Positions 1-23,529 are shown, counted from the first letter of the stretch. The stretch: DNA of 64,000 nucleotides from an uncultured Alphaproteobacteria bacterium (GCA_904502095.1 CAJGDG010000001.1:2242-66241); one strand, 5' to 3'. Translations and numbers: made by a program. Notes: generated by a model not told the origin, from the letters alone.

Positions 1-1392
1 ACCGCTTGTTATTCTTCCGCTTATGGTGAAGATACTCAGGCTCAAGAAGATTATATTTATTCTGTTGCACAAGGTTTAATCCTAAATGTCGATAATGAAA
101 TGCTGGCTCAATGCCAAAAGGCTGCTAATGAAGCTATGATTAAAGTGTGTGGCAGTACAGAAAGCTGTGATGCAATGACAATCGCAGATGGTGTTGGCGC
201 ACATGCATTGGAATACAAGATATGTGAATATGCAGTAGGAACTGAAGGCGAATATGCTTTTTCAAATTGTAAACAAGACATGAATCTGATTATGGACGAG
301 GATTTGTTAGGAACGGTTAAATATGAGCCCGGGGAGATGTTTGAAAATACATTAAATTTTGAAAATCGTTCTGATTATGAAGGTGATATAGAAAAACTGA
401 TTGAAGATGCATCAAAGGCGGTTAATGGGAATAAACGGAGTCGTTTGTATGCCGCAGCAAATAAATTAGAAGAATTAAAAGCATCGGAAGTTGGTAAGTT
501 GAAACAGGACCCGTTGAAATTTAAATATAGAGCATATGAAGGTTATAAACTGTTTGCAGGTGTGTTGGATGGTGTTATTGCATGGAATAAAATAAATGTT
601 TCAATGCAAGACGTTTGCCCGTATAAAATTCCAGCTGTGGATACAGATGGTAAAGAAGTAGAAGAAAAGCAAGAATCGTCTGGTGTTATGAAGTTGTGCA
701 TATCTGGTATTGAAGATGCGGCACTGACAGTGAATGCTGGTCAGAATGAGGCAACAAAACAGGATCAAATCTTGTCAGATTTGGGTGCGTTAAAAAATTC
801 TATTAATAATACAATATATGCGATTGAATCAGACCCAACTGTTCAATTCTGTATGACAGGTCGCAAGGTACAAGGACTGAAAATGGGCAAGGATGGTGCG
901 GCTGAACGGACCGAGGCTCGCTTCCCAGGACTGATTGATTCAATGAAGGTAGTTATTGCACAGTCTGCGGTACAAAAGGCCCAGGCAAACTATAATAAAA
1001 AGTATGCGGAATTAGATGAAAAATTGCGCAAGAATAATGTGGCATTGGCGGAACGTATTGCCAAGGTGCGAGAAGAACGAGAAAGCGCCGATAGAACAGA
1101 GATTGCTGCACGTTCTTGTTTGTCGATGGGGACAAATTCAACATTGCCAGTGCAAACAGGTACAGATAATGCAGAATTACAATCTGCCCAGGGTTATACT
1201 GCGACGAGCAAGAATGATGGGGCGGAATATCGTGAAGTTATTACAACAACGTTTAATCCAACAACGCTGGTTTGTAAGAAGTGTACAGTATCGCAAGATT
1301 GCGCAAAGCTAAAAAGGAAAAACAGCAAGAAAAATAAGCATTGTGTTGATTGGGAAGACCCGGTTGAAAAATGTACAGAAACACAATTTTAA
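1..1392 (+). CDS. 3' portion of a large cysteine-rich secreted protein (paralog P1). Its 5' end lies upstream of the window.
   Basis: Frame 1 is open from base 1, with no stop before the first Met at 100. The product matches the C-terminal halves of the 1371..4292 and 21049..23529 products: an ARFP...NYNKKY segment, paired Cys, and a terminal 4-Cys module (..TTFNP..LVCKKC.VS.DC......C.DWED...KCTETQF). Confidence 0.7.
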   Translation, partial: TACYSSAYGEDTQAQEDYIYSVAQGLILNVDNEMLAQCQKAANEAMIKVCGSTESCDAMTIADGVGAHALEYKICEYAVGTEGEYAFSNCKQDMNLIMDEDLLGTVKYEPGEMFENTLNFENRSDYEGDIEKLIEDASKAVNGNKRSRLYAAANKLEELKASEVGKLKQDPLKFKYRAYEGYKLFAGVLDGVIAWNKINVSMQDVCPYKIPAVDTDGKEVEEKQESSGVMKLCISGIEDAALTVNAGQNEATKQDQILSDLGALKNSINNTIYAIESDPTVQFCMTGRKVQGLKMGKDGAAERTEARFPGLIDSMKVVIAQSAVQKAQANYNKKYAELDEKLRKNNVALAERIAKVREERESADRTEIAARSCLSMGTNSTLPVQTGTDNAELQSAQGYTATSKNDGAEYREVITTTFNPTTLVCKKCTVSQDCAKLKRKNSKKNKHCVDWEDPVEKCTETQF

Positions 1393-4292
1393 TAATGCGT
1401 GTTATTGGTAAATGTTTTTTAATTGTTTTGGCTGTTTGCACCGTCTGGATTGACGGTGCATTTTGTGCAACTGTACGACGGGGTGGGGCGGCGCAATCAT
1501 CTGCGCCGAAAACGACGGCTGCGCGTGCGGCGACCAATTCGCGTACTGCGCCAAAGACGGCAACAACCGCAACAAAAACAGGTGGTCGGACAACTGCGGC
1601 GCGCAGTGGGGTGCCCGCATCGTCTGCGGCCCCCAAGGCGCCGGTTGTTTCAGCCCGTGCAGCTGCAACACAAAAGGTTATTGGTACAGGGACCAAGGTT
1701 GCAGGTGCAACAGAAAATACTGCTGTGGGGTCCGATTGTCAAAATTTGTATAATGCATGTATGGATGCGTTTTGCATTGTTGATAATGTTGATGGCGGCA
1801 GATGCGCATGCAGTGATAAATATAAATCATTTGAAGCATTGTTAACCCAGGTTGATGATTTGAACAATCAAGCGTATAAAATATCGACTGTTGGGATGGA
1901 ATCAGTTGAATCTGTTGTCACAAAAGACGCTGCGTTGCAAGTTGGTAAAATTTCTAATTTGCAAAAAACAGATTTACAAAAAGCGTGGGAAAACGGCGAT
2001 GTTGGTGGTGCCTTGCGCAAAACGGCAATTGATGCCTGTGCGGCAAAATTGCCACAATGTGCGAACGAATTGACCATTTTATCGGGGATGTATTCCGGAA
2101 AAATAAATGGCGATTGTGTTGCGTATGAAAACAGTATAAAAAAGTTGCTGGCTGATGCAAAAGCGCGTTTGAATCAGGCCGAAGTAGATTTGCGCTCGTC
2201 CGCGCTGGATGTGGCAAAAAATGCAAACAAATATGATTTGGGTCAATGTACAATCAAATTCCGTGAATGTATGCAGACAACTGCGGAATGTGGGGCTGAT
2301 TTTACGGGGTGTGTTGATACGACCGAGCAAACAAAATCCAGAATCAAAAAAACACAGGCCGAAGAAATTTTTGTTATTCCAAACACAACCGCAAAATTAA
2401 CGATATCGAAATCAATGTATGATTTATTGATGGCTAAATCAGTTGTTTGTTCGTCTGTATTGGATAATTGCGTTGCCGTTCGTGATTCTGTTTTTGATGC
2501 TTTTCTGCGCGAATCAGCGCCATTGTTGACAATTGCAGAAAATTTGGCGGAATCAAATGCACGCCAAAATTGTATTACCAAGGTTTCTGACTGTTTTCAA
2601 AATGCCTGCCGTGATAACATAGGCCCTGATGATAAAGATGCGTCTTATGATGCGTGTTTGACGCGTCCTGAAACAATGTTGTCCTTTTGTAAAGTCGAAT
2701 TGGACGCGTGTGGTGTTGATACCAGTTCCGCAGCCCAGGCAAAAAAGTCTGAAATATGGGATTATGTTTTGGCCAAGTTGGCTGCGTTAAAGGTTGATGC
2801 CTGTACCGAAGATTTAAAAGATTGCTTAACAGATGAAAGCAGATGTGGCGCAGATTATTCGAATTGCGTGGGATTAAGCACAGAACAAATTATCAGGATG
2901 TGTCCGTATGACAAATTGACAGGCTGCAAAAATGTGTATGATAACGAATTGACTTCGGACCAGGTATACGAAAATTTGACCAATGTTGTCCAGGGTATAA
3001 TATTAAATATTGACAACGAGTTGCTGGCGGTTTGTCAGGCGGCGGTCGATAACGCGGCGGTTCGTGCGTGTGGTGAAAATCTAGATTGTGGAAATTTGAT
3101 AAATTTGGATACCATTGGCACAACATCGCTGGATTATAAAATATGCGCGTACCAGACAGTGGGCCAAGATGTCGCGTTTACAGACTATTGTCATCGTGAT
3201 GTTTCATTGATTCCGGATTCGCATCTGGGACGGGTAGAGGGATCGACCACAGGTGAATTGGGACCGGTTGTTCCGTATGCGGCGTTGTTAGATGTTCCTA
3301 TTTTCTGGGAATCTATCAGTGTTGGGCTGGATGGAAAATTTGTTGGTATTGATAATTACTTGTCAAAGTTGGAAGAAAGAAAAATTGTTATTACAGATGC
3401 ACAAAAAGAACGTTTGATGAACGAGCTGAATACATTTAAATCTGGATTGGATAATGTAATTCAGATAATTGAAAATGATACAGATGTTGATGCGTGCATG
3501 AACGGAAAAAAATTACAGGGGTATGGTTCAAAGAAAATTGCACGATTCCCAAATATTACGCAAAGCACGCGTATGTTAATTGCAGGGAAAATGTTGAACC
3601 GGGCCAAGGAAAATTATTATGCAAAATATGATGAATATAATACGCGTCAATTAAAAGATTATATCGCCATTACTGAACGTCAGGTGAAAATCAGGGGTGA
3701 AAATTTCAAAGATAAACATCGTGAATTGGCGCGGCAAAGTTGTGTCAGTTTGGCAGAAATGTCTGCTATGCCTAAAACGAAAGAACCACCGTCTAGTGTG
3801 CTTGGTGGAATATTGATAGGAATCATTTTGGCGGCGGCGGTTGTTGCTACATGTGTAATGACATTTGGAGCGGGTGCTGTTGCTTGGGCGGAACTTGGTG
3901 TGGCGATGGCGGCTAATTTGGCTGTTTCACAAATAAGTGGGATAGCTGCTGCTGGTATTGCTGGGGCTGTGGCTGTTGCGACTGGTGGTGCCGCGGGCGT
4001 TGTTGCAGCGGGATTGGCGATAAATGATGCGGTTCAGGGCAAAGATGTGTATATTAAATCTTCTGAGTCAACAGGAACTACACAAGAGACAACAAACACT
4101 GGGTCGCACAGTATAAAACATTGGAATTACAAGGAAGACATTACAACTATATTTAATCCAATTGATTTAACATGTGAAAAATGTGTTGTTTCAACCCACT
4201 GTAAAAAAACCAAGGCACCAATGTTTGGGGATCAGTATTGTTTGGAATGGGAAGAATCTTTGCCAAAAAGATGCACCACAATTGAGTTTTAG
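1371..4292 (+). CDS. Large cysteine-rich secreted protein (paralog P2, 973 aa). Alternative start at 1395.
   Basis: Signal-peptide-like N-terminus (..CFLIVLAVCTVWIDGAFCA). An Ala/Thr/Arg/Lys-rich low-complexity linker follows. The N-terminal module is GSDCQNLYNACMDAFC..GGRCACS. Cys pairs recur through the body. About 55% local identity to the 21049..23529 product (VLDNCVAVRDSVFDAFLRESAP.. versus VLNSCVAVRDQVWPAFLREAAP..). A Gly/Ala-rich glycine-zipper hydrophobic segment is present (GGILIGIILAAAVVAT...GIAAAGIAGAVAVATGGAAGVVAAG). The protein ends in a 4-Cys module. Confidence 0.8.
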   Translation: MYRNTILIMRVIGKCFLIVLAVCTVWIDGAFCATVRRGGAAQSSAPKTTAARAATNSRTAPKTATTATKTGGRTTAARSGVPASSAAPKAPVVSARAAATQKVIGTGTKVAGATENTAVGSDCQNLYNACMDAFCIVDNVDGGRCACSDKYKSFEALLTQVDDLNNQAYKISTVGMESVESVVTKDAALQVGKISNLQKTDLQKAWENGDVGGALRKTAIDACAAKLPQCANELTILSGMYSGKINGDCVAYENSIKKLLADAKARLNQAEVDLRSSALDVAKNANKYDLGQCTIKFRECMQTTAECGADFTGCVDTTEQTKSRIKKTQAEEIFVIPNTTAKLTISKSMYDLLMAKSVVCSSVLDNCVAVRDSVFDAFLRESAPLLTIAENLAESNARQNCITKVSDCFQNACRDNIGPDDKDASYDACLTRPETMLSFCKVELDACGVDTSSAAQAKKSEIWDYVLAKLAALKVDACTEDLKDCLTDESRCGADYSNCVGLSTEQIIRMCPYDKLTGCKNVYDNELTSDQVYENLTNVVQGIILNIDNELLAVCQAAVDNAAVRACGENLDCGNLINLDTIGTTSLDYKICAYQTVGQDVAFTDYCHRDVSLIPDSHLGRVEGSTTGELGPVVPYAALLDVPIFWESISVGLDGKFVGIDNYLSKLEERKIVITDAQKERLMNELNTFKSGLDNVIQIIENDTDVDACMNGKKLQGYGSKKIARFPNITQSTRMLIAGKMLNRAKENYYAKYDEYNTRQLKDYIAITERQVKIRGENFKDKHRELARQSCVSLAEMSAMPKTKEPPSSVLGGILIGIILAAAVVATCVMTFGAGAVAWAELGVAMAANLAVSQISGIAAAGIAGAVAVATGGAAGVVAAGLAINDAVQGKDVYIKSSESTGTTQETTNTGSHSIKHWNYKEDITTIFNPIDLTCEKCVVSTHCKKTKAPMFGDQYCLEWEESLPKRCTTIEF

Positions 4293-4340
4293 CATATAAA
4301 ATGGCGGCTTTCGTTATCGCCGGGAAAGCGGCCCCAGAAT

Positions 4341-4710
4341 GACAATTTTTTTTGTTAAAAAAAATTGTCATCCTGGTACTTGATACCAGGACCCAGGTTA
4401 TTAATGCAAATTTGTGTTCGCGTTGCGAACATAGACCTAGGTTCCACGGTCAAGCCGTGGAATGACAGAGTTTTTTGTTTGTTTACCTAGGTTCCACAGG
4501 TCACCCGTGGAATGACAGAGTTTTTAAGTTTTTTTACAAAAAAAATTTTAAAACTATATATGTAAAGTTCTCATCTGTCATCCTGGTACTTGATACCAGG
4601 ACCCAGGTTATTAATGCAAATTTGTGTTCGCGTTGCGAACATAGACCTAGGTTCCACGGTCAAGCCGTGGAATGACAGAGTTTTTAAGTTTTTTTACAAA
4701 AAATTTTTTA
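4341..4710. repeat. Array of palindromic hairpin-rich repeats, RPE/MITE-like. Two near-identical ~115-bp copies plus partial copies.
   Basis: Unit copies at about 4367-4480 and about 4576-4690: tgtcatcctggtacttgataccaggaccc...tgttcgcgttgcgaaca...ttccacggtcaagccgtggaatgacagag. Each unit carries three internal hairpins and imperfect terminal inverted repeats (ctgtcatcc / ggaatgacag). A partial 3' copy sits at about 4486-4530. An upstream hairpin tgacaatttttttt/aaaaaaaattgtca lies at about 4341-4370. Confidence 0.7.
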
Positions 4711-4726
4711 ATTTAAATTTGTGATG

Positions 4727-4987: not shown

Positions 4988-5022
4988 GTGACACACTGTA
5001 TCAATTTATAATGATGGTTGCA

Positions 5023-5688: not shown

Positions 5689-6912
5689 TTATTGTTTTTT
5701 GTTTATAGATTCGGCAAGACCAAATAAAGCACCCAATGAAGTAGCAAAGGAGCCTTCGTCGGTTGTATCGAGTGCCTCGGTCGCATCAGTTTCGAGTTTT
5801 GGGTCTTTTTTCGCGATTGCTTTTTTCAGTTCGTCAGAATTAAATTTTTTTATCACGTCGCCCGCATCACTTAAATCCAGTTTGCTTAAATCCAGATCGT
5901 CGACATTTTCCATGCCGGCTTCTTTTAATTTTTTCTTTATTTCGTTTGCGTTTTCTTCGCTTTTCTTGCTGGCTTTTTTAGCCTTTAAATCCTTGATTTT
6001 TTCGCCCAGTTCGCCGTTCAATGCCACATTGCCAATCAGCGATGCTGCGCCACCAACGCCGGCAGTAATTGCACCGGTTTTAACTTTCTTGGCGGCTTCT
6101 TCTTTTTGGGCATCCCACGCAGCGGCCGCGGTCGCGTCACCCTGTAATGCCGCCGCCAACGATGTATATGCGCCACCAGTTTTGCCAACATTTTTATCGT
6201 CGTACAGACCAGCTGTTGCGGCATCAATAATTTCTTCACTTTCGATGCCAGGTTGCATACCCAATGCGTTTTTGCGTGTTTTTAAACTGTTTGCCAGTTC
6301 GCGGTATTGCATAACCAGCGGTGTTAACGCATTTGCGCCAGGTAATTCAATTGCACTTTCGCCACCGGCAATGCGGCCTGAACCGTATTCGCATGTGAAT
6401 GTTGCAAGGTACGCCTTCATTGCAGTTTCGGCTTCTTCATCCGCCTTTTTTTCTGCCAATCCAGATGCCAATTGCATACCACCAATACCCATAGTCGCCA
6501 TACCAGTTGCGCCCAGTATTTTATTTTCCAACGATTGTTCGGTTTCTTTGGCTTCGTCTGCTTTGGCCTTTAAGTCCGCCAACTTTTTTGCCTTGGCTTC
6601 TTCATCGGCCGCGTCCGCGTCGGGGTCGGTGGCGGCTTCATCTCCTGGGGGTGTGTCGCCGGTTTCGTTGCCCGTGGTGGTGGAATTGCCTTTAAGCGCG
6701 GCTATGTTGTCGTCGTTTTGTGTTTTTAATTTTGTTTTTTCTTCCTCTGTTGCGGCACTTGCCCCGCCGATGATTTTTTGGGCTTCGGCTTCGTATGCGG
6801 CGATAATATCGGCCACCTTTGTTTTGCCCGCAAATGGGGAGTTTTCTTCAGCCGATGCCAGGGCAGGGATCATAAATAAAACTAATAAAGATGTCAGGCA
6901 CAGTTTTTTCAT
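5689..6912 (-). CDS. Secreted Ala/Lys/Glu/Asp-rich protein with glycine-zipper segments. Last gene of the minus-strand operon.
   Basis: Signal peptide MKKLCLTSLLVLFMIPALASA. Acidic low-complexity body. GxxxG-rich segments ILGATGMATMGIGGMQLASG and KTGAITAGVGGAASLIGNVALNG. Its start overlaps the upstream stop (ATGA at 6909-6912). Confidence 0.7.
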   Translation of the reverse strand: MKKLCLTSLLVLFMIPALASAEENSPFAGKTKVADIIAAYEAEAQKIIGGASAATEEEKTKLKTQNDDNIAALKGNSTTTGNETGDTPPGDEAATDPDADAADEEAKAKKLADLKAKADEAKETEQSLENKILGATGMATMGIGGMQLASGLAEKKADEEAETAMKAYLATFTCEYGSGRIAGGESAIELPGANALTPLVMQYRELANSLKTRKNALGMQPGIESEEIIDAATAGLYDDKNVGKTGGAYTSLAAALQGDATAAAAWDAQKEEAAKKVKTGAITAGVGGAASLIGNVALNGELGEKIKDLKAKKASKKSEENANEIKKKLKEAGMENVDDLDLSKLDLSDAGDVIKKFNSDELKKAIAKKDPKLETDATEALDTTDEGSFATSLGALFGLAESINKKQ

Positions 6913-8144
6913 GCTTTATCTCCCTCTCCACTTCCTTCTTGTGTCGTTTTTGTTTCCTGTTCTGTCAGTGCGGTTAATGCGGCCTGGGCCTGTTTTAATA
7001 AGTTTTTAAGCGCGTCGGATGCTGTTTTATATGCTTCGCTGGGCAGTTTTACGCATTTGCCGTCAACGGGGGTTGCTTCGTGTGTATTGGTGTCACATGT
7101 GATTGTGCATTTGTTTTCTTTGCCGTCCCATTCGGCCTTTGTGGCGCCTTCGATTTTTTCTTTTTTGCACGCCTCTTGTTCGGCGGCTATATCAGCCTTT
7201 GTTTTTTCAACACAGCCCGTGCCATCTTCCCACTTTTTTGTGCCACAATCGCAATCCGTATCGGGGGAAACGCTGTTTGTGACTTCGCCCTTTGTTTTTA
7301 AACACAATGATTCTTCGCAGGTTTTGTTATCCTTCTTTTTATAACCGCGTTTGCACTGAAGAATTATACATTCGCCGTCGGAGTTATAACGACCGACATC
7401 TATATTTTCAGCGACGCCATTCACGCCACCACGACATTCAGCTGGTTCGCATTTTGATTTGTCTTCGTTAGGTTTTTCGTATTTATTCGTACATTTTGTT
7501 ATTATGCATTTGTTTGATGTCGGGTCATATGCAAGCACTACATTTTTGGGGTCCAGTTTCATTTCTTTTGCATCGCATTTGACATTACACTGGTTTGATT
7601 CCCATTTGGCAGATGATGCGCCCCTGATTTTTTGTTGGTCGCAATTTTTTTCTGCCTGGGTTATACAGCCCTTGCCATCTACCCATACTGTGGCATTTTT
7701 ACATTCGCATGGTATGTCGCGCGTTGGGCGCCACAAGCCATTGGTTTTATCGCATAATTCCCGCTTTGCGGATTGGGCGTCTTTTTGTTGTTGTTTTTCG
7801 TTTGGTGTGCATGCACCTTCTTTCAGTTCATACCCGTTTTTGCAGGTTTTTACGACGCATTCACCATTTTGCATTTCGCCGGTTTTTGCGTATGGGTCCG
7901 TTGGTGTGCATTCACTGACGCATTTATTATTTTTTAACTTGTATTTTGGTTCGTCGCATGCGGTGATTTTGCATTCGCCTTTGTCCCATTTTGCGCCCTT
8001 GATCCCGTTTTTGCCGACTTGATTCTGGCATTTCATAGCAGGGGTTTCAACAAGCGTTTTCATAGGTTCCGCCTGTACAGCCATTGCGCCATAAAACGGT
8101 GCAATCATAAATAGGGCGGTAAAGATTTTTAATATGTTTTTCAA
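6909..8144 (-). CDS. Secreted tandem-repeat cysteine-rich protein (P3). TTG start codon.
   Basis: Signal peptide MKNILKIFTALFMIAPFYGAMAVQA. About 8 repeats of a ~45-aa Cys unit, for example KWDKGECKITACDEP.., KWESNQCNVKCDAKE.., GECIILQCKRGYKKKDNKTCEESLC. Codon 1 is TTG. Confidence 0.7.
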   Translation of the reverse strand: MKNILKIFTALFMIAPFYGAMAVQAEPMKTLVETPAMKCQNQVGKNGIKGAKWDKGECKITACDEPKYKLKNNKCVSECTPTDPYAKTGEMQNGECVVKTCKNGYELKEGACTPNEKQQQKDAQSAKRELCDKTNGLWRPTRDIPCECKNATVWVDGKGCITQAEKNCDQQKIRGASSAKWESNQCNVKCDAKEMKLDPKNVVLAYDPTSNKCIITKCTNKYEKPNEDKSKCEPAECRGGVNGVAENIDVGRYNSDGECIILQCKRGYKKKDNKTCEESLCLKTKGEVTNSVSPDTDCDCGTKKWEDGTGCVEKTKADIAAEQEACKKEKIEGATKAEWDGKENKCTITCDTNTHEATPVDGKCVKLPSEAYKTASDALKNLLKQAQAALTALTEQETKTTQEGSGEGDKA

Positions 8145-11336: not shown

Positions 11337-11393
11337 TGGCTGGACAGGTAAGTCATTATTATGATAAGATTTTATTGTCATAAGAGAGTAGGA

Positions 11394-14300
11394 ATGAAAT
11401 TTATCAGAATTTTAATGTTTGCTTTGTTCTTGGTGCCGAGCGTATCGCGTGCTGCATCAAACGAATTTATGGTTGCGGCCCAGTTGTTGGCGGCGGCAAA
11501 AAACGCCGATATTCAGCAGGTGCAAAGTCTGGTAAATGCAGGGGCTGATGTTAATTTTGTGGATTCAACGGGATTGTCTATTGTTTGTACTGCGTTGATG
11601 AATAATGATGTGCGTGCTGCACAAATATTGCAAATGTATGGGGCTGATGCGTCAAAATGTGACAGTCAGATAAAAAGATACAACAATCGAACAAAGCCAA
11701 AGCCGAACGGCGGTCTGTTCAGCGGACTGTCGTCTGCCCAGACAATTGGTTTAGCGGCGGCGGGGGCCGCCGTTGTCGTAGGTGGGTTGTTTTTATTGAC
11801 TGATGTGTTTGACCCGGGAAATGATAATGACAGTTCAGCATCTGGGGGTAATCGCCCAGATAATAACCCAGACAGTGGTGGCGGCGTAAATGGAAACGCA
11901 GCTTTTTCGGTGGCGTACAGTCCGGCGTATCTGGGGGCGGATGGTAAAATGACCACGGATGATTCCGTTTATCAGGAAAATTTAGCGTCTTGGAATCCTG
12001 CTGCTGGTGGTTTGCGTGCGGCAGATTTTAACTATTTTAATCCAAATGAACAACCCGAAAATAATTATTATGTCGATGGCGTTGGTGTGCAGATGCAAAA
12101 TTATTTGCTGATGATGCATGGGTATTCTGCGTTTGCAAATGATTATTTTGGTCAAACTGTTTTCCGTGATAAATCAAATAATAATAATCCTGTGTTGGTC
12201 AGTAATAATGCTGGCGGTGGGGCACCTGTGGCGGTTGGTTTGGTGACTGCTAATGGTTTGAATTCGACTGGGTCGGCGGCGCGTGCAGGCGGTATTGAAT
12301 ATGCCAACAGTGCGGCGGCGGATGCAACAACATATTTGGTTGATAAATATTTGAACTATGCCAACCCTGATGCTGGTGGTGTTGAAATTGCGGGGTTTGA
12401 TTTTTCAGGTTCTGGTACTGCGATGAATCCGTTCGCGACCAGCTATGATAATGCGCTGGGTAAAATCGTCGCAGGTTGGGAGGCGGGCGGTCGTTCATAT
12501 GGTGATTTGATGGGTTTTGTTCCAAATGGTCGCTTGGCAATTTATAAGACAGGCGGTGGTGATGCATTTGTGGATGTTGCAAATCCAACCGATGGGGCGG
12601 TTGTTGCGACTTTGACAGATGTGGATGAAAATAGTGCGCTGGGGGTGGGCGATAAAATTGTGATGGGTGACGTCACATATAATATTGTCAGTGCGCGCGG
12701 TGATGCAACTGTGACAAATCCGACAATTAAAATTGGCAGTACTATATATAGACTGGCAGATGACAGTCAAATGCTGTTAGCGAAATGTGATGGGGATGCG
12801 TGTGATGATGTTTCTGATGTTGCAATTTATCAGGGAACTGACGGATATTATTATCTGAATACAACAGGTGGAAATGCGCCTGATGCAGTTTATGTTTTAA
12901 AAGACAATAATTTTTATGTGCAAAAAGAATTGCAAACAGACGGTGTTGCATACAAGAATTTTGAGGCATTAGATGCGGCGCGTTCATCTGGGGTTAATGT
13001 TTTAGCAAATGTTTCGATAATTGATGCATCGCGTGCAAATGATTATAAATCTGTTGCTGATATGCCTGCATATATTGCAACCAGTTCTTTGGCAGATACA
13101 GAAGATTATCAGAATTTAATTGATAAATACTATGGGGCAGGTCAGGGCGCATTTGCAAACAAGATGTTTAATGCGTATGGCGCGTCATCGCCGGTTTTGG
13201 TTATGCCTGCGGGGGAATTTGTTTTTGATAATAACGCTGCAAAAACAGCGACTTTTGAAAACTATGCCCCACTGTTATATGATACTAATTTAAATCAACG
13301 CTTTATGACTGTTGTGGCAGTTGGACATACCAAGGGTACCAGTGCGGCAACATCTATTTCAGGTTATGGTAATGGGGTTAATGATGCCTATGGCCCATTG
13401 TATTTGTCGATGTATGAAAAAGACGATGTTTCTTATATGTCGCGCACGTGTGGGGTTGCGGGTGTTGGTGGTGGCAATGTCGACCCGTGGTGTTTTGCTG
13501 CGGCGGGCCCAACAACAGAAATGGCGGCGGCATCGGCTGCGGGTGCGTTTGCTTCTTTGCAGGCGGCGTTTGATTATATGTCCAATGCCCAGATTTATCA
13601 GTTGATGGCTTTGACTGCTGATGGGTATTTGCTGGGAACGGCGTCTGACGGTACAGCCTTTACCAAAGATACTTTGGCAACATATTTAAAGCAGATGTAT
13701 GCATTGCCGCCTGAATATAATATAGGGACAATGTCGTCAGAACAATATTTGAACGCGTTTGCCCAGGTTTATGGTTATGGTTTGATTAATCTGGAACGTG
13801 CAATGAAGCCGGGGCGTTCTGTGTATTTCTATGATGGGGCGACAAATAAAATTGTGTCTGCAAATGGAAATGCGTATTGGCGTGCGGCGTCAAATACAGC
13901 GTTTCGTTCATCAGCTGCATTGAATATGCGTGGGGCAACAATCAGCGCACCTTTCTTTGATGTTGTGGAAAGTGTTAATGGCGAAATCTCTTTGCCGCGT
14001 GTTTGGGAAAATGAATTTGCGGTTGGGGCAACTGATTCACATGGATTGTATATGGGCGATGTGTTGGGTGACTTAGATACGCGTCGTGAATCTGCGCAAA
14101 AGACCAAGATTGGCGATATTGATTTTTCTTTGGCGTTGTCAGAACGCGCGTATGTTGATAATATGGGCGGATTGGACAGTTTGAATATTGGATACAAAAA
14201 TGGGAACTGGGGTTTTGGTGCGTCTTATCAGCGTTATTTAACAGACGGTGCGTCGCGTTTTGCGGGGCTGCACAATCCAATTATGGGGTTGGCATCAAAT

Positions 14301-15038
14301 GCGGTTGTGTCCGATGTTGAATATAATTATGGCAAATGGTCGTTTGGTGGACGTGCGTTTTCTGGTATGATTTCAGATGAAGGTCTGTTGGAAAATGATC
14401 CAACCGTATCAGCGCAGTATATGCCTGCAAAACTGGGCTTGGTCCAGGGTGGTGGCGCTGATATCAAATGGGTTGGCGACACTATTTCGTTTAAGTCGTC
14501 GATTGGTGCGGTCACAGAATCTGATACTTTGTTGGGGGCGTATACAGATGGTCTGTTGAATTTGGGTAATGGTAATACGACTTATGTTGATTTTGAATCT
14601 AAATATAATGTTTCTGATTCTGTTAATTTTACAGCGCGTGCGACATTTGCGCATACTGTGTCTGATGCGGTTGGCGGAATCGTGCTGGGGTTAAGCGATA
14701 TCGAGTCTAATTCATTTGCGTTTGGCGCAAATATCGGAAACTTTGAATTCAGTGTTTCCCAGCCTTTGGCAATAACAGATGGTGCGTTAAAATATTCGTA
14801 TGCAAAGTATGATGTTGATGCAACAGGGGCGGTAAATGTTGTTGATGCGCATATTGAAAATCTGTCATTAAAACCAGATGTGCGTGAAACAAGATTTATG
14901 GCAACATATCGTCATAATTTTGGCGAATTTACAGATGGGGCAGTTGGATTTATATATCGCGTTAATCCAAATCATACCGATGATTTCGGGAACGAGTCTG
15001 TATTTATGATGAAGTTAAGCCACAGATTGGGAATTTAG
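11394..15038 (+). CDS. Large secreted protein: N-terminal ankyrin repeats, degenerate subtilase-like central region, C-terminal beta-barrel (autotransporter-like)
   Basis: ORF trimmed to Met 11394 (MKFIRILMFALFLVPSVSRA signal peptide, GAGTAGGA RBS). Two ANK-like repeats (AAQLLAAAKNADIQQVQSLVNAGADVNFVDSTGLSIVCTALMNNDVRAAQILQMYGADAS). Region ..CFAAAGPTTEMAAASAAGAFASLQAAFDYMSNAQIYQLMALTADGY.. parallels the Ser-motif region of the S8 protease at 44942..46795 ([28 protein letters not shown]..), but carries Glu where the catalytic Ser should be. The C-terminal ~300 aa has an alternating beta-strand pattern rich in aromatic and Gly residues. Confidence 0.5.
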   Translation: MKFIRILMFALFLVPSVSRAASNEFMVAAQLLAAAKNADIQQVQSLVNAGADVNFVDSTGLSIVCTALMNNDVRAAQILQMYGADASKCDSQIKRYNNRTKPKPNGGLFSGLSSAQTIGLAAAGAAVVVGGLFLLTDVFDPGNDNDSSASGGNRPDNNPDSGGGVNGNAAFSVAYSPAYLGADGKMTTDDSVYQENLASWNPAAGGLRAADFNYFNPNEQPENNYYVDGVGVQMQNYLLMMHGYSAFANDYFGQTVFRDKSNNNNPVLVSNNAGGGAPVAVGLVTANGLNSTGSAARAGGIEYANSAAADATTYLVDKYLNYANPDAGGVEIAGFDFSGSGTAMNPFATSYDNALGKIVAGWEAGGRSYGDLMGFVPNGRLAIYKTGGGDAFVDVANPTDGAVVATLTDVDENSALGVGDKIVMGDVTYNIVSARGDATVTNPTIKIGSTIYRLADDSQMLLAKCDGDACDDVSDVAIYQGTDGYYYLNTTGGNAPDAVYVLKDNNFYVQKELQTDGVAYKNFEALDAARSSGVNVLANVSIIDASRANDYKSVADMPAYIATSSLADTEDYQNLIDKYYGAGQGAFANKMFNAYGASSPVLVMPAGEFVFDNNAAKTATFENYAPLLYDTNLNQRFMTVVAVGHTKGTSAATSISGYGNGVNDAYGPLYLSMYEKDDVSYMSRTCGVAGVGGGNVDPWCFAAAGPTTEMAAASAAGAFASLQAAFDYMSNAQIYQLMALTADGYLLGTASDGTAFTKDTLATYLKQMYALPPEYNIGTMSSEQYLNAFAQVYGYGLINLERAMKPGRSVYFYDGATNKIVSANGNAYWRAASNTAFRSSAALNMRGATISAPFFDVVESVNGEISLPRVWENEFAVGATDSHGLYMGDVLGDLDTRRESAQKTKIGDIDFSLALSERAYVDNMGGLDSLNIGYKNGNWGFGASYQRYLTDGASRFAGLHNPIMGLASNAVVSDVEYNYGKWSFGGRAFSGMISDEGLLENDPTVSAQYMPAKLGLVQGGGADIKWVGDTISFKSSIGAVTESDTLLGAYTDGLLNLGNGNTTYVDFESKYNVSDSVNFTARATFAHTVSDAVGGIVLGLSDIESNSFAFGANIGNFEFSVSQPLAITDGALKYSYAKYDVDATGAVNVVDAHIENLSLKPDVRETRFMATYRHNFGEFTDGAVGFIYRVNPNHTDDFGNESVFMMKLSHRLGI

Positions 15039-15526: not shown

Positions 15527-15555
15527 AAATCCCCAAAATGGGGATTTTTATTTTT
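15524..15555. terminator. Bidirectional intrinsic terminator, family aaaatcccc(N4-5)ggggatttt
   Basis: aaaaatccccaaaatggggatttttattttt between convergent genes. Confidence 0.7.
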
Positions 15556-16285
15556 GAAAGTATTGTGCTTTTTGCTTTTTGGAATTTTTGTACATTTCGT
15601 TCATTATTTCTTTTTGGCTCTCTTCTGTCTTGGAATCTTCTGAAAATTCTGTGCCGTTTAAGATGACAAGTCGTGCCGGCTTAAAGTCTTTGTTGCCTTC
15701 GCCGCCGCAGTCCACATGATATTTAGAAGCGTCATACGGTTTTCCCCAACATTTGCCGTTTTCAACCCCGATGTATCCTTTTTTTTCTAAGAAATCACAT
15801 GTGACTGGTTTGTCTGTAATTTCGCCGTTTTCTGTTTCATCGATTGGGTCTTCTAATATGCCGGTGCACCAAACCTTTACAGGTTTTCCACCAACCATAA
15901 CCTCGGAACCTGTTTTGTTATATTTGCGGCGTACACCAAAACAATCGTCGGTTTTTGATAAAATATTTGTATCAAAGTCGTCAGAGATAGCGTTATTGGT
16001 ATTGTGTTTGATATCGTTACGACTGACCAGTTGTGCTTCGTACGGTTGGGGGGGGTTAAATGCGTTTGGGCAAATGTATTTCATGCCGTAACAGTTTGAA
16101 TCACCGTCCCATTTGTCTGTGTTAAAACCATCGCCCATGTTGACATAGCATTTTGTTTCGTTGACACGACAAACTGTTGGTTGTTCCCACCAGGGGATAT
16201 CGAAAGCCGTGGCTGAATTATCGAAAGCCGTGGCTGAATTTATGCCAATCAAAGATAATACAGAAATTATAAATGCTTTTTTCAT
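15548..16285 (-). CDS. Small cysteine-rich secreted protein (245 aa)
   Basis: Signal peptide MKKAFIISVLSLIGINSATA. 14 Cys. In-frame tandem duplication NSATAFD x2 right after the signal peptide. Confidence 0.6.
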   Translation of the reverse strand: MKKAFIISVLSLIGINSATAFDNSATAFDIPWWEQPTVCRVNETKCYVNMGDGFNTDKWDGDSNCYGMKYICPNAFNPPQPYEAQLVSRNDIKHNTNNAISDDFDTNILSKTDDCFGVRRKYNKTGSEVMVGGKPVKVWCTGILEDPIDETENGEITDKPVTCDFLEKKGYIGVENGKCWGKPYDASKYHVDCGGEGNKDFKPARLVILNGTEFSEDSKTEESQKEIMNEMYKNSKKQKAQYFQK

Positions 16286-16294
16286 TGTCTTTTC

Positions 16295-18439: not shown

Positions 18440-18519
18440 TAACTTAAAATATATTTTATCAAAATCTGGGCTGTTAAACAAGAAAAATGAAACAAAAAAA
18501 CCGCGATTGCGGTTATTTT

Positions 18520-18765
18520 TTATTGTGCGTTTTCAGTGCCGGTGCGCGTGCGTTCAACAAATGTAATGCGGCCCTTGTCCAAATCGTATGGGGTCATTTC
18601 AACACGAACGCGTTCGCCAACGTTGACCCAAATGCGTGCCTTGCGCATTTTTCCGCATACGGTTGCCAAAATTTCATGCCCGTTTTCCAATTTTACACGG
18701 AACATTGTGTTTGGCAGTTTGTCTTCGACTGTGCCACTGAAAACGATAACGTCATCTTTTGCCAT
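18520..18765 (-). CDS. infA: Translation initiation factor IF-1
   Basis: [69 protein letters not shown] is collinear with E. coli IF-1 (..[14 protein letters not shown]...SGKMRK...TPYDLSKGRI..). Confidence 0.9.
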
Positions 18766-18899
18766 ATTTTTTTTCCTTAATATTTTTCGTCAAATATAAT
18801 ATTGCGTATGCCGAAAAAAATCAAGTTGTTTTTATGTGCTTGCGTGCGGGGGAATTATTTGATAAAATAAAACATACTTATTATAGGGTGGAGAGTCCG

Positions 18900-21026
18900 A
18901 TGAGTTTAAGATTTTTTGCAATGTTATTGGTTTTATTCCCAACAGTTGCGCTGTCCGCAACTCGTGGTGATAATGCGCGGGTTGGGGCGATGCGTGCGTC
19001 CGGGGCGCGTGGGGGCGTTGCTGCAAATGCTGCAGCGGCAAATGCTGCGGCTGCGGCAAAAACACAATCGGCCGCGGCGGCAAAAACGGCGGCACCTGCG
19101 ACAGAAGATTCTGTGGAGGTAGAGGCAACGGCCAAGGCGCCAGCGTCAAGTGGCGATTGTCGTGAAGCGTATCGTGCGTGTATGGATGAATTTTGCTTGT
19201 TGGATGAATCCGAGGGGTATCGTTGTGCGTGCTCTTCTAATATAAATGCGTCTAAGTCTTTGATTAAGGAAGTTCAACAAATTCAAGAAGAAGCGGACAA
19301 ATTGTATACAGAAGGTGTCGAACGCGAACAGTTGGGCGCCAAGGCTGCGATTATATTTGGTGAAAGTGATGCCGCCAAGAAAAGTTCGCGTGCTTCTGGC
19401 TTAAGTTTTGCAGAATGGTTAAACAGTGGTTCTGGCGATGGATCCTTGGATGCGGATGAAGATATTGGTGATGGCTTGTATTCTATGGCCGCGGAATATT
19501 GTCAGGCTGAACTGGATGCGTGTGGTGACAAAGCCGAAATGGAAGAAATGTTGTATAGTCGTCAGGTTATCGCAGACTGTAAGGCGTTTACTGTGTATTT
19601 GGATGATCAAAAAAGAAATGCACTGGCGAACAAGCGTATGGCCGAATCGGCTGTGCGTCAGGCGCGTTTGGAAATGTTTGATACGACCAATAAATACAAT
19701 GCGGGTGAATGCTTGATTGCGTTTCGTGCGTGTGTTGCGGACAAGGGTGGTTGTGGCACGAATTTTGAAAACTGTTTAGATAAGGATTTGTTGACGCGTC
19801 GTTCCAAGGCGTGCGAAAATGTGTTGGATCAATGTATGGCGGTAAGAAAGTTGGTGCAACAAGATTGGGAAGAAGAGTCCGAATCGATTTTGGCAGAGGC
19901 TGAAAAATATGCAGATAAATATCGTCGTCAAACTTGTTTGGCGCAAATTCAGGTTTGTTTGGAAGATGGGTGTTCGACATCAACTAATTCTGCGTGCTTG
20001 ACTGATGTCAGGGTGGCCGCGGGTGTTTGTCCTATTATTGATGAATGTAATGAAATGATACCGGGGATAAAGTCTGTTATTAATGACAAGTTGGGGTATC
20101 TGCGTTTGCAGTTCTGTCAAAATGATGTGGATGCGTGTTTGCGCGACAAATGTGGTCAGAATTTTACTGCGCCGGAATGTCTTGGGAAAAATACATCTGA
20201 AATTGTTGCGATGTGTCCGCAAGATATGTTCCCGTCATGCAAAAATGAAACACAATATGATGTTATTGTTAGTGCTGCATTGTTGCAGATGGATTATCAG
20301 ATGATGCAGGGCTGTATGAATCATTTCAGTGAACAGTTGGGCAAAACTTGCGGTACAGATATGGCGTGCCTGCCGACTAGTGCGATTGTATCTGCTTTGT
20401 CCGATTTGCCAGAAGATGAAGCAGGGATGATAGAGTTGCGTGCAAATGTTATTGCAGAATCAAAGACGGCGGTGGATGAATTCTTTAAGCAGTTCGAAAA
20501 GGATAAAACTGTTGCTGCGTGCGCGGATGCAGAAAAACCAAGTGGTCGCAGCAGTTTGGGCGCAAATATCTTTAATACAGCAAAGATAATTGCTGAAATT
20601 GGCGCTGAAAATCGTGCGATTCGTGCATTGGAAGAAAAAATTACAGAAATATCACGCAAAAAGGATGTAAAAGAAGCGGAAGAACTGTGTTTGTCGACTT
20701 ACAAGGTCGAATCGCCAAGTCAGTCAAAGAAAAATTATAGTTATATAAAGAGTGTTTCTTTTGAGCCAAGTTTGCGTAATTGTCATGTTTGTCGTGTACA
20801 ACAGGTTTGTGAAACAGGTGGAGAATCTAAGGCTTCTTCGGCATTAAAGGCTGCGTCTGGCGGTTTGTCTGCTGGGGCGGCGGCAGGTACCATGGTTACA
20901 CCAGGTTGGGGCACTGCAATTGGTGGGGTTGTTGGTGCTGTTGGAGCTGGTGTAATGGGATATATGTCTGGCGGGGAAAAAGAATTCTGTCAGGAAATAT
21001 CAAGCTGTGAAGATATAAATATGTAA
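18900..21026 (+). CDS. Large cysteine-rich secreted protein (P7). Start trimmed to Met 18900.
   Basis: RBS GGTGGAGA. Signal peptide MSLRFFAMLLVLFPTVALSA. Ala-rich linker (AANAAAANAAAAAKTQSAAAAKTAAP). Module SGDCREAYRACMDEFCLLDESEGYRCACSS. Motif KYNAGECLIAFRACVADKGGCGTNFENC shared with P2 and P8. C-terminal glycine zipper AAAGTMVTPGWGTAIGGVVGAVGAGVMGYMSGG. Terminal Cys motif. Confidence 0.8.
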   Translation: MSLRFFAMLLVLFPTVALSATRGDNARVGAMRASGARGGVAANAAAANAAAAAKTQSAAAAKTAAPATEDSVEVEATAKAPASSGDCREAYRACMDEFCLLDESEGYRCACSSNINASKSLIKEVQQIQEEADKLYTEGVEREQLGAKAAIIFGESDAAKKSSRASGLSFAEWLNSGSGDGSLDADEDIGDGLYSMAAEYCQAELDACGDKAEMEEMLYSRQVIADCKAFTVYLDDQKRNALANKRMAESAVRQARLEMFDTTNKYNAGECLIAFRACVADKGGCGTNFENCLDKDLLTRRSKACENVLDQCMAVRKLVQQDWEEESESILAEAEKYADKYRRQTCLAQIQVCLEDGCSTSTNSACLTDVRVAAGVCPIIDECNEMIPGIKSVINDKLGYLRLQFCQNDVDACLRDKCGQNFTAPECLGKNTSEIVAMCPQDMFPSCKNETQYDVIVSAALLQMDYQMMQGCMNHFSEQLGKTCGTDMACLPTSAIVSALSDLPEDEAGMIELRANVIAESKTAVDEFFKQFEKDKTVAACADAEKPSGRSSLGANIFNTAKIIAEIGAENRAIRALEEKITEISRKKDVKEAEELCLSTYKVESPSQSKKNYSYIKSVSFEPSLRNCHVCRVQQVCETGGESKASSALKAASGGLSAGAAAGTMVTPGWGTAIGGVVGAVGAGVMGYMSGGEKEFCQEISSCEDINM

Positions 21027-21048
21027 TTTATAAAAATGGGACGGAGAG

Positions 21049-23529
21049 ATGGTCTTTAAAAAATTATCTTTGTTGTGTGCTTTTGTAATTGCAATCTCGG
21101 GATTGCACAGTGATGCGTTAGCGGCTGTTTCGAAAAAGAAGGAATCGAAACAGTCTGCAATTCAAACCGGGACCAAGGTTCGTACCAAGGTTGAAGTGTC
21201 TGGTTTGTACGACCAGGAATGTTATGATGCGTATTATGGATGTATGGACCAGTTTTGTATTGCCGATAATGAAAATGGTGGCAGTTGCGCATGCAGTGAT
21301 TTAAATGCAAAATATGAAAAAGATTTAGAAGATATAAAAAATATATTGGAAGAAGCGGAACGTATCAGAACGGTTGAAGTAGAAAAAGTTCAGGCTGGGG
21401 CGAATGTAGATATCATTTTTGGTGCCGGCGAGCGTCAATATGATGAAGATGGCAATATTGTAGATTTAGAAGATCGTGAGGATAAAAAATCTGAAATGTT
21501 GGCTTTGTGGAATTCGTCTTTTGATGAAGAAGATGAAGAAGAGGTGGACATATCGGAATTATCGGGAAATGAATTGTATGTTGCTGCAAATGATTTGTGT
21601 CGCGAACAAATTCCAGATAAGTGCGAAACAGATTTTAATTTCTTGGTTCAGGTTTACAAACGTCAAATTGTATCCGATTGCAAAGGTTTTGAAAACAGTA
21701 TTACCAAAAAACGTGGCGAAGCAGAAGCAGCATTGGCAAGTGCAGAAGCTGAGGTTCGTGGCGCATTAAAAGAATCTTTGAACGAAGCAAACAAGTATGA
21801 TTTGGGTACTTGTATGGTTGAATTTAAAAAATGTATGAAAACTGAAGACGCCTGTGGTTCTGATTGGTCGGGTTGCGTTTCGACAATTGCTGATGCTAAT
21901 ATGCAGGGAATTGACGAATCTGCGGTATTTAAAGATGAAAATATGAAAAAGTCTGCGCAAAAGGCGTATGATGGCAGCACATACGGTATTGCTGCGTCGA
22001 CAATGGAAGGATTGGATTCCAAGCGTATAATTTGTGAACGTGTTTTGAATTCTTGTGTTGCGGTTCGTGACCAAGTTTGGCCGGCGTTTTTGCGTGAAGC
22101 GGCGCCGTCAATCAAAGTCGCAGAAACTCTGATTGAATCAAAGATGCGCCAATCTTGTTTGACTGATATTTCAGATTGTATCCAAAAAGCCTGTCGTGAC
22201 GATATTGCGGGTAAGGGCGAGGATACGATGGATGCGTGTTTGGCACGTCCAGAAATGGCACGCAGTTTCTGTAAGATTGAAATTGAAAGATGTGAAAAAA
22301 TGGAACCGCAAATCTGGGCGTATGTGACAGATAAATTAAAGGCAATGCGTGTCGATGTTTGTACCCAGGAAGTAAAAGATTGCTTTACAGCAGATACACG
22401 TTGTGGCGCAAATTTCCAAAACTGTATCGGTATGGATTATGACTATATCCACGATATGTGCCCAATTGATTCATTGGTTGTTTGTAAACAAGGTAATCCA
22501 GGGTTTTCAATGGATGATTTGGATTCTATGTTGATGGGGTTGTATTTGAATATTGATAATTCTGCACTGGATCAATGTCAGGCAACGGTGGACGATTTTA
22601 TGACAGAAATGTGCGGCAGTACATCAGATTGTAATCGTTTTGCAGCTGATGATATTTTAGGAACTGGCAGTATTCGTTCCCAGAAAAATGGACAAAAATA
22701 TATTGTGACCGGTATGATTTCGTTCGGTTCAATCGAAATTGGTAAGGCTGGAACAGATCAGGCGGGTCGGATTAATGTACAGGGGTATATCAAATCATTA
22801 TATGAAAAATATGGTTTGGCACCAGGTTCGACATCTGATAATGCAAATATTATTTTAACGATTGAAGAAGAGTTGAATAATATTGCAGGTACAATTAATC
22901 GGGCAATTGATATGCTGGAATCAAATGAAAAAGTTAAATGGTGTGTCAAAGGTCGCGATTTGACAAATATTACGGGTGATGACGAAATGACCGAAGCGCG
23001 TTTCCCACGTATGTTGGATCAATATAAAGTTCAAATTGCTGTTTCGGCTTTAAGTAAAGCGCAACAGAACTATAATAAAAAGTTGACTGCTGAAATCAGT
23101 AAAGCAACCAAGGATGCGTCTGCTGATATCGCAGAATATATGTGTCATAAAATAGGGGCGACTGGGAATGTGTCGACATCTAATTCGGGTACTTTTGCGA
23201 CAGATACAGAACTGGCAGAACCGTTGGCGATTAAATATGAGGTTGCAGCAGGCCTAAAAACGAGCGAGCTGACACAAAATGGTACCAGCTCAGAAAACTA
23301 TGGCGGTCAAGAATTTAAAAACAAGAAGGGTGAAGTTGTTGCAAAGGCCGGCGGTTCCAGACGCGATGTGTCCGCGATCTTCTCGCGCGAGACAAGAATG
23401 TGTCATGTATGCACAACAATACATATTGAAACATGTAATGTAGAAAAGAAAGGCTTGAACGCAAGAAAGGTTAATACAGAATGTACCCCGACAGTTCAAG
23501 GGCCGACATGCGAAGACATACCAATGTAA
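21049..23529 (+). CDS. Large cysteine-rich secreted protein (P8, 826 aa)
   Basis: RBS GGAGAG. Signal peptide MVFKKLSLLCAFVIAISGLHSDALA. Module DQECYDAYYGCMDQFCIADNENGGSCACSD. Long collinear similarity to P2 (KYDLGTCMVEFKKCMKTEDACGSDWSGCV versus KYDLGQCTIKFRECMQTTAECGADFTGCV; EARFP..NYNKK). Acidic stretch SFDEEDEEEVD. Terminal Cys module. Confidence 0.85.
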   Translation: MVFKKLSLLCAFVIAISGLHSDALAAVSKKKESKQSAIQTGTKVRTKVEVSGLYDQECYDAYYGCMDQFCIADNENGGSCACSDLNAKYEKDLEDIKNILEEAERIRTVEVEKVQAGANVDIIFGAGERQYDEDGNIVDLEDREDKKSEMLALWNSSFDEEDEEEVDISELSGNELYVAANDLCREQIPDKCETDFNFLVQVYKRQIVSDCKGFENSITKKRGEAEAALASAEAEVRGALKESLNEANKYDLGTCMVEFKKCMKTEDACGSDWSGCVSTIADANMQGIDESAVFKDENMKKSAQKAYDGSTYGIAASTMEGLDSKRIICERVLNSCVAVRDQVWPAFLREAAPSIKVAETLIESKMRQSCLTDISDCIQKACRDDIAGKGEDTMDACLARPEMARSFCKIEIERCEKMEPQIWAYVTDKLKAMRVDVCTQEVKDCFTADTRCGANFQNCIGMDYDYIHDMCPIDSLVVCKQGNPGFSMDDLDSMLMGLYLNIDNSALDQCQATVDDFMTEMCGSTSDCNRFAADDILGTGSIRSQKNGQKYIVTGMISFGSIEIGKAGTDQAGRINVQGYIKSLYEKYGLAPGSTSDNANIILTIEEELNNIAGTINRAIDMLESNEKVKWCVKGRDLTNITGDDEMTEARFPRMLDQYKVQIAVSALSKAQQNYNKKLTAEISKATKDASADIAEYMCHKIGATGNVSTSNSGTFATDTELAEPLAIKYEVAAGLKTSELTQNGTSSENYGGQEFKNKKGEVVAKAGGSRRDVSAIFSRETRMCHVCTTIHIETCNVEKKGLNARKVNTECTPTVQGPTCEDIPM

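Follow-up and report, generated by a model that had tools for sequence, protein, structure and literature searches.

A family of large, cysteine-rich exported proteins in an Enterousia-related alphaproteobacterium and its possible role in the cell envelope

In chlamydiae, OmcB and OmcA are believed to build a layer, linked by disulfides, on the periplasmic side of the outer membrane, and OmcB, a heparan-sulfate-binding protein rich in beta structure, carries a basic N-terminal region. Other host-associated bacteria make Sel1-like repeat proteins, such as Hcp of Helicobacter and EnhC and LpnE of Legionella, in which helical repeats are stapled by spaced cysteine pairs. Here, we describe a locus at positions 1 to 23,529 of a 64,000-nucleotide stretch of DNA from an uncultured Alphaproteobacteria bacterium (GCA_904502095.1 CAJGDG010000001.1:2242-66241; hereafter, the window) that encodes a family of large, exported, cysteine-rich proteins. 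On the sequence evidence this family is previously undescribed, and its members may build a disulfide-stabilised structure in the cell envelope. A sequence-only reading of the window had spoken of six such genes while its own list held seven; all seven open reading frames (ORFs) lie where it placed them, in the tandem and operon layout that it described (lengths in amino acids, aa, or base pairs, bp):

P1, 1..1392, plus strand: the C-terminal 463 aa of a 1012-aa paralog that starts upstream of the window
P2, 1371..4292, plus strand: a 973-aa paralog (965 aa if read from the ATG at 1395)
P4, 8156..9622, minus strand: 488 aa, with two six-cysteine units and a glycine-rich segment
P5, 9619..10632, minus strand: a 337-aa putative compact relative with a signal peptide, no linker and 20 conserved cysteines
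P6, 16295..18439, minus strand: the most divergent full-length paralog, with 22 conserved cysteines and a start at ~18439
P7, 18900..21026, plus strand: a 708-aa paralog with 36 invariant cysteines, a glycine-zipper-like segment near the C-terminus and the C-terminal end CEDINM
P8, 21049..23529, plus strand: an 826-aa paralog, 22 bp after P7, with 36 invariant cysteines and no membrane segment

By sequence comparison, P1, P2, P6, P7 and P8 are unambiguously true paralogs. BLASTP aligns P2 with P8 at 32% identity over 711 aa (E ~1e-99), consistent with the collinearity over more than 600 aa noted earlier, and also links P2 to P7 (5e-46) and P6 to the others (~1e-16 to 1e-18). P1 shares 50% identity with P2 across 650 aa and 37% with P8, and hhalign comparisons among the five give probabilities of 99-100%. 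The N-terminal module, first proposed with a variable third gap as C-x6-C-x4-C-x(6-11)-C-x-C, is present in all five in the exact form C-x6-C-x4-C-x9-C-x-C. A five-paralog alignment contains 32 columns with cysteine in at least four of the five sequences, compared with a mean of 0.01 (maximum 1) in 500 residue shuffles. This control rules out the compositional artefact that the first reading had named as a possible undoing of its motifs, a conclusion that also draws on the conservation of cysteines among orthologs, the exact module and the homology scores.

Of the seven genes originally given a single architecture, these five are the full-length paralogs, whereas P4 and P5 share only the cysteine framework. 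Neither BLASTP nor hidden Markov model searches link P4 or P5 to the family. The hhalign match of P4 to aa 472-570 of P2 (82%) is local and covers one cysteine unit, and that of P5 (43%, E 2.4e-4) covers one six-cysteine unit even with a deep 41-sequence profile. When cysteine spacing is compared, 18 of the 19 gaps between the 20 cysteines of P5 match those between the first 20 cysteines of P7, a score reached in 0/20000 shuffles, and the P5 cysteines are also collinear with the first 20 of P8. The 15 cysteines of P4, all of them core positions conserved in 8/8 sequences, match a stretch of the family framework at 12 of 14 gaps, as 34/20000 shuffles also do. From this spacing, we take P5 and P4 to be compact and strongly diverged relatives that appear to be built from the same six-cysteine unit as the family.

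That the proteins could not be assigned to a known family was the starting point of the sequence-only reading, and wider searches agree. Scans of all locus proteins with Pfam, NCBIfam and PADLOC gave no meaningful match (for the paralogs, Pfam-A by hmmscan to E 0.1), searches of PDB sequences by phmmer and with a family profile gave nothing below E 0.1, and a structural model of P8 had no significant match among PDB folds. A metagenome scan with P2 returned nothing. An exhaustive profile search of 1.84 billion representative sequences retrieved 1047 clusters; identity to the window proteins is 27-68% for the top 150 representatives, which contain ~34-46 cysteines if full length, and ten sampled cluster members were all metagenomic, the sole named one being a hypothetical protein of an uncultured alphaproteobacterium. 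Every one of 339 P5 homologs is likewise unnamed or called ‘hypothetical’. We found no description of the family in the literature on Enterousia, Rs-D84 or cysteine-rich periplasmic proteins of reduced-genome Alphaproteobacteria. As far as these comparisons reach, they show the family to be previously undescribed and outside all known families and folds searched, making it new at the level of both family and fold. An origin in mobile elements was rejected, as tblastn with P8 found no match in plasmid or phage collections. The description of an expanded lineage-specific family can be kept for its lineage specificity; with five full-length and two compact members, the expansion is modest.

The window proteins have their closest relatives in metagenome-assembled genomes from the guts of humans, ruminants, horses, chickens and mice, which bear the labels Candidatus Enterousia, ‘Alphaproteobacteria bacterium’ or ‘uncultured Rickettsiales’. 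The nearest genomes are those of Candidatus Enterousia, and all named relatives of the family are from uncultured Alphaproteobacteria. According to published genome analyses, Enterousia belongs to the uncultured order Rs-D84, with genomes of ~0.75-1.0 Mb, a fermentative metabolism in which the tricarboxylic acid cycle and respiratory chain are reported absent, no flagella, and retention of RodA, MreB and MrdA (PMC12306168). The standard sugar, amino-acid and peptide importers are also reported missing, and the way of life predicted for the lineage is that of an obligate symbiont or parasite that depends on other cells (PMC12306168). The window has a G+C content of ~41%, and its genes for LpxI, an outer-membrane-protein barrel, an OmpA-like protein and an autotransporter indicate an outer-membrane envelope. 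The family genes amount to ~18 kb, or ~2% of a genome of <1 Mb, and for a genome of this size they are a large investment.

The family framework consists of 20-36 cysteines with a recurring unit, C-x6-C-x4/6-C-x6-8-C-x10-12-C-x5-7-C, of which P7 and P8 each have three copies and P4 and P5 each have two; as an internal repeat, hhalign detects only a 23-column C-x6-C-x6-C-x6-C element (81%). Nearly every cysteine is 95-100% conserved across ~40 orthologs per group that are otherwise 50-75% identical, and P7 and P8 contain exactly 36 cysteines in almost all species. Cysteine counts in the mature proteins are mostly even (36 in P7 and P8, 20 in P5). The C-terminal module, described as having four cysteines, has five in P1, P2 and P8, is shorter in P7 and is absent from P6.

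The pattern of cysteine loss is informative about pairing. When 199 family members were aligned to the family profile, which has 29 core cysteines, 126 kept all 29, and 23 lacked exactly two, in recurrent fixed pairs: 445+471 (8 members), 382+397 (7), 370+415 (5), and 522+528, 58+65 and 262+329 (1 each), as counted over cluster representatives that are not fully independent in phylogeny. Single losses of core cysteines are rare, with eight in total and seven of these at one site. Pairwise loss of this kind is typical of cysteines that are bonded to each other in disulfides and speaks against ligands of metal clusters. A candidate oxidant is encoded elsewhere in the window:

DsbA-like protein, 51651..52595, plus strand: thioredoxin fold, membrane anchor and CGYC active site, with the start probably at the MTWTILV methionine near 51771

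This protein matches the Pfam families DSBA (2e-16) and Thioredoxin_4 (1.3e-17) and has orthologs in 15 related loci. We infer that it is the oxidant of the family; its gene is not linked to the family locus. No DsbB-like gene is evident among the window ORFs that were scanned, several small ORFs never having been scanned against Pfam and DsbB or VKOR not having been looked for outside the window.

The cysteines could instead ligate metal, sequestering zinc, copper or iron, or could act as a thiol redox buffer in the periplasm of an anaerobe. C-x-C and C-x2-C motifs do occur in the N-terminal and C-terminal modules, some members have lost the N-terminal five-cysteine module as a whole, and a non-respiring anaerobe has no obvious means of re-oxidising DsbA. 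Core cysteines, however, disappear in fixed pairs and not in groups of four ligands, the mature proteins have even cysteine counts, a DsbA-like oxidase is retained in a genome of <1 Mb, and Pfam detects no metal-binding family. We regard metal binding or redox buffering as very improbable.

Signal peptides of the signal peptidase I type, canonical when judged by eye, are present in all groups and their orthologs, and together with the conserved cysteines they uphold the view that these are exported, cysteine-rich proteins. A basic low-complexity linker, originally ascribed to each protein, follows in P1, P2 and P6 (pI, or isoelectric point, ~12) and in P7 and P8 (pI 9.7-9.9); P5 has none, and that of P4 is acidic overall. 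The protein bodies are acidic (pI 4.6-4.9). P6 combines its signal peptide with a ~100-aa linker rich in T, A, S, R and N, and lacks one six-cysteine unit and the C-terminal module; across species, its linker keeps this composition and its charge (+12.7 per 100 aa) but not its sequence. We also note that the mature N-termini of P1, P2, P4, P6 and P7 and their orthologs carry the motif A-(A/S/T)-V-(x)-R-(G/D) directly after the predicted signal-peptidase site, for example at ~18370 (P6) and ~18960 (P7), followed in P7 orthologs by ARVGVxR. This motif could be a sorting or anchoring tag.

An AlphaFold2 model of P8, based on a 42-sequence alignment and of moderate confidence (predicted local distance difference test score, pLDDT, 68.9; predicted template-modelling score, pTM, 0.40), consists of long helices over aa 56-704, dominated by helices of 35-58 residues, and a C-terminal beta-hairpin domain (aa 729-825) that includes the C-terminal cysteine module. 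Family proteins are thus predicted to be mostly alpha-helical. The beta domain is polar, cysteine-rich and not amphipathic, and a hydrophobic C-terminus of the form C-x-[D/E]-[I/V]-x-[M/F] is found in many family members.

Potential membrane segments are unevenly distributed. P2 is ordered as signal peptide, basic linker, cysteine-rich helical body, two hydrophobic Gly/Ala-rich segments (aa 806-885) and a five-cysteine C-terminal module ending in F. The glycine-rich segment of P7 resembles Gly-zipper_YMGG and Gly-zipper_Omp (PF13441 and PF13488) with E values of 0.007 and 0.012 at 16 bits, where the cut-offs are 25-29 (the higher one 28.9); the Gly-rich segments of P2 and P4 match no glycine-zipper profile. 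P1 and P8 have no hydrophobic Gly/Ala or glycine-rich segment, and P1 has no hydrophobic anchor. Because P2 and P7 carry Gly-rich segments and P1 and P8 do not, each tandem pair would comprise one putatively anchored and one soluble member.

These features admit a conduit or pore for uptake or exchange, in which helical rods would span the periplasm and the zipper and beta domain would insert into membranes, replacing the missing transporters. The reported loss of the standard importers, the helices of up to ~58 residues that precede the beta-hairpin domain in the P8 model, the hydrophobic hairpin segments of P2 and the hydrophobic C-terminal end in many members are all compatible with such a device. 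Neither in sequence nor in fold do the proteins resemble TolC, membrane-fusion proteins, pore-forming toxins or secretins, the single PilQ alignment (E 2.5) being non-significant; their beta domain is cysteine-rich and polar instead of amphipathic; and the conserved module includes neither an ATPase nor an inner-membrane partner. A trans-envelope conduit consequently seems improbable to us.

Comparison of 80 species-level genomes shows that the divergent module formed by g15548-P6 on one side (g15548 being the gene directly downstream of P6) and P7-P8 on the other is essentially invariant, with variable flanking genes, and that the P5-P4 and g11361 module, in which g11361 is divergent from P5, is also conserved but relocates within the genome. 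Each paralog is a single-copy, one-to-one ortholog with 54-70% median identity, and the window contains no further family copies or silent cassettes. The window also encodes a 1306-aa autotransporter (36942-40862, plus strand) with Chlamydia-type polymorphic membrane protein (Pmp) repeats and an autotransporter domain (PF03797, 2.4e-26 by Pfam). Median identities over the same genome pairs are:

RNase HII, 72%
DsbA-like protein, 71%
P7, 69.5%
P8, 65%
MscS, 63%
P6, 54%
g15548, 48%
Pmp-type autotransporter, 43%

P7 and P8 are thus conserved like RNase HII, the DsbA-like protein and MscS, and far above the surface autotransporter. From the single-copy orthologs, the fixed module and these median identities, the genes are, by comparative evidence, a fixed ortholog set under purifying selection and not the variable surface repertoire that had been suggested. 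The corresponding model, in which surface antigens would vary or be switched so that the cell escapes host immunity or phage, can draw on the tandem paralogs, on low-complexity linkers that vary in sequence and length between species, and on near-identical DNA in P1 and P2. These two genes share tracts of 222 bp and 77 bp with ~99% identity (window 1487-1708 and 2218-2294 in P2, with counterparts in P1 at L082:14234-17272), covering the basic linker and the KYDLGQC motif, while the proteins are otherwise ~50% identical, which looks like recent local gene conversion. Against an antigen repertoire stand the copy number and gene order of the core module, fixed in ~80 species, the one-to-one orthologs, the invariant cysteine framework, conservation well above that of the surface autotransporter and the lack of silent cassettes or extra copies elsewhere in the window. 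We consider this model largely refuted and give it almost no credence.

We tentatively favor a reading, plausible although short of probable, in which the family comprises Sec-exported, DsbA-oxidised helical proteins that form a scaffold associated with both periplasm and outer membrane. After export, a DsbA-like protein would oxidise the cysteines to intramolecular disulfides, giving rigid, rod-like helical bodies. The proteins would then be retained in the periplasm, which is probable because the searches turned up neither an autotransporter domain nor a dedicated route for export across the outer membrane, and because their conservation is like that of internal proteins. P2 and P7, and also P4, would be fixed to a membrane by the glycine-zipper-like hairpin, with P1 and P8 as soluble partners, and the strongly basic, disordered N-terminal tails might attach to anionic components of the envelope or to the acidic bodies of adjacent subunits. 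The result would be a hetero-oligomeric scaffold, stabilised by disulfides and located at or beneath the outer membrane, that stiffens or organizes the envelope of this genome-reduced symbiont. Retention in the periplasm, assembly into hetero-oligomers, anchoring and the scaffold function itself are all inferred.

Alternatively, the proteins could form a surface attachment apparatus, acting as adhesins or as a contact complex toward host mucus, epithelium or a partner microbe, with tails that bind polyanionic glycans or membranes and disulfides that resist gut proteases. A basic N-terminus followed by a cysteine-rich body recalls the heparan-sulfate-binding OmcB of Chlamydia, neighboring genes often encode surface proteins (the Pmp-type autotransporter and a giant ankyrin-bearing protein), and P6 and g15548 have diverged more quickly than P7 and P8. 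Dependence on other cells without standard transporters, as predicted for the lineage (PMC12306168), would also suit such an apparatus. No secretion domain or outer-membrane route was identified in the family proteins by Pfam or by the NCBIfam and PADLOC scans, and the conservation of P7 and P8 is that of internal proteins, exceeding by far that of a bona fide surface autotransporter. An attachment apparatus is therefore rather unlikely in our view, and the sequence evidence leans toward an internal envelope role over that of an adhesin.

Several observations weigh against a periplasmic scaffold. First, peptidoglycan and rod-shape machinery are still encoded, so an extra skeleton is not obviously needed. 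Second, the re-oxidation of DsbA is unexplained, because the lineage reportedly lacks a respiratory chain. Third, the paired cysteine losses are counts that are not fully independent in phylogeny, the P8 model has only moderate confidence, and the glycine-zipper assignment is below threshold. Finally, type II secretion may deliver the proteins to the surface. A bolder version of the scaffold reading, which we find doubtful, is an Rs-D84-specific, disulfide-stapled ‘periplasmic skeleton’ with a new fold, convergent with the chlamydial complex, in a fermentative anaerobe that has DsbA but no respiratory chain. If true, it would imply a new route of oxidative protein folding in the periplasm.

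Other genes and elements of the locus, with its transcription units, are:

g5689, 5689..6912, minus strand: a 407-aa exported Ala/Glu/Lys-rich protein with Gly-rich segments and no Pfam match
g6909, 6909..8144, minus strand: an exported protein of 411 aa with 30 cysteines and a repeat-like sequence, part of the P5-P4 operon
g11361, 11361..15038, plus strand: 1225 aa, with a signal peptide and then two ankyrin repeats (aa 36-103)
g15548, 15548..16285, minus strand: a 245-aa exported protein with 9 invariant cysteines, in the same operon as P6
Terminator, 15554-15520: terminator of the P6-g15548 unit
infA, 18520-18765, minus strand: a small gene between P6 and P7
Transcription unit 1: rpoA-rplQ, then P1-P2 in the same orientation
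Transcription unit 2: P5-P4-g6909-g5689(-HAD), divergent from g10762-g11361-g15095
Transcription unit 3: P6-g15548, with its own promoter-like site and terminator
Transcription unit 4: P7-P8, with a 22-bp gap

The full P1 gene (1012 aa) is present on the source contig, a 141-kb ENA assembly (L082:14234-17272), directly downstream of rpoA-rplQ (L082:17486-19334), and the P7 start at 18900 agrees with the gene call in L081. P4 and P5 overlap by 4 bp at the P5 stop and therefore belong to one operon, in which g5689 is the last gene before a HAD hydrolase gene. In other species, g5689 also adjoins P4-P5, often as a longer protein, whereas g6909 has no counterpart among 80 related loci and no Pfam match and is thus specific to this genome. 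A hairpin terminator (18514-18499) lies between P6 and infA. The g15548 gene is found in 67/80 loci; the AlphaFold model of its product has a low pLDDT of 38. Both the P1-P2 operon, beside rpoA-rplQ, and that of P6, beside infA, adjoin translation or transcription genes. The ccrM gene, by which the whole block was said to sit, is adjacent in only 8/80 related loci; its proximity is incidental, and we reject a functional link to the family.

The position of g11361, divergent from P5, is kept in other species. This protein had been called an ankyrin/pseudo-subtilase beta-barrel protein. Its ankyrin repeats, directly behind the signal peptide, are real: aa 44-102 match designed ankyrin proteins (DARPins) at E 6.7e-13 by phmmer against PDB sequences, with a Pfam ankyrin match below threshold. 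The likeness to subtilases is faint and probably marks a degenerate region (Peptidase_S8, E 0.058, 13 bits against a cut-off of 21.8), with one 16-aa motif in common with the bona fide S8 subtilase of the window (44942-46795, minus strand), and no beta-barrel family was detected.

Farther from the locus, an autotransporter related to that at 36942-40862, a fast-evolving protein, often lies just upstream of g15548-P6 in other species. A gene of the choloylglycine hydrolase family (30626-31837, minus strand), of bile-salt hydrolase or penicillin acylase type, is kept despite a gut genome of <1 Mb. An ATPase of the type II/IV secretion ATPase family (49069-50064, minus strand; Pfam T2SSE), which we read as VirB11-like, could be a sign that this reduced genome encodes type IV secretion or a related system. 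At 58488-60378 (minus strand), a gene with a weak, below-threshold match to MotA/TolQ/ExbB adjoins one with an OmpA domain (MotB-like), a pair that is kept in 22 related loci although flagella are reported absent from the lineage.

More broadly, Enterousia and Rs-D84 are widespread in human, livestock and rodent guts, yet they are uncultured, with genomes of <1 Mb and an obscure lifestyle. A family that takes up ~2% of such a reduced genome and shows the conservation of housekeeping genes must have a central role in the cell. A periplasmic scaffold would raise the question of how disulfides form without a quinone-linked oxidase, and a contact apparatus would point to how symbionts exploit partner cells. 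Either way, these proteins are concrete targets for antibodies, cryo-electron tomography guided by fluorescence in situ hybridization, and metaproteomics.

Set beside described systems, the family shows partial likenesses. As with the mitochondrial twin-CX9C and twin-CX3C (CHCH) hairpins, cysteines fall on one helix face (here i, i+7) and would form paired disulfides in an oxidising compartment, but spacing, size and organism differ, and the sole match is to COX6B at noise level (E 0.68), leaving this as an analogy only. P7 has a hydrophobic segment rich in G-x3-G, as do P2, P4 and g5689 when judged by eye, and such segments recall the glycine-zipper hairpins (SlyB/Pcp and the Rickettsia 17-kDa antigen) by which small outer-membrane lipoproteins are anchored; here, however, the segment is a small part of very large chains that are not lipoproteins. 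Pfam finds neither the conjugation profile TraN (PF06986) in the family, whose genes are chromosomal core genes with conserved synteny, nor the autotransporter barrel domain (PF03797) in any P protein.

Hcp and other Sel1-like proteins are closer in overall design, being paralogous, exported, alpha-helical repeat proteins with regularly spaced cysteines. In contrast to them (PF08238), the family has no Sel1 or TPR match in Pfam, is built on a six-cysteine unit with C-x6-C instead of one cysteine pair per ~36-aa repeat, and consists of proteins of 700-1000 aa with basic disordered tails and a C-terminal beta domain. With OmcB and OmcA, it shares Sec export, a very high cysteine content and a host-dependent bacterium with a reduced genome and, with OmcB, a basic N-terminal region. 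The differences are that Pfam detects no Chlam_OMP6 or Chlam_OMP3 (PF03504 or PF03503), that OmcB is beta-rich whereas the Enterousia proteins are predicted to be helical, that paired cysteine loss points here to intramolecular bonds, and that Enterousia keeps its peptidoglycan machinery. If the scaffold exists, it would resemble the chlamydial cysteine-rich outer-membrane complex in function, without homology, and would be a second, independent disulfide-built layer in a bacterial envelope.

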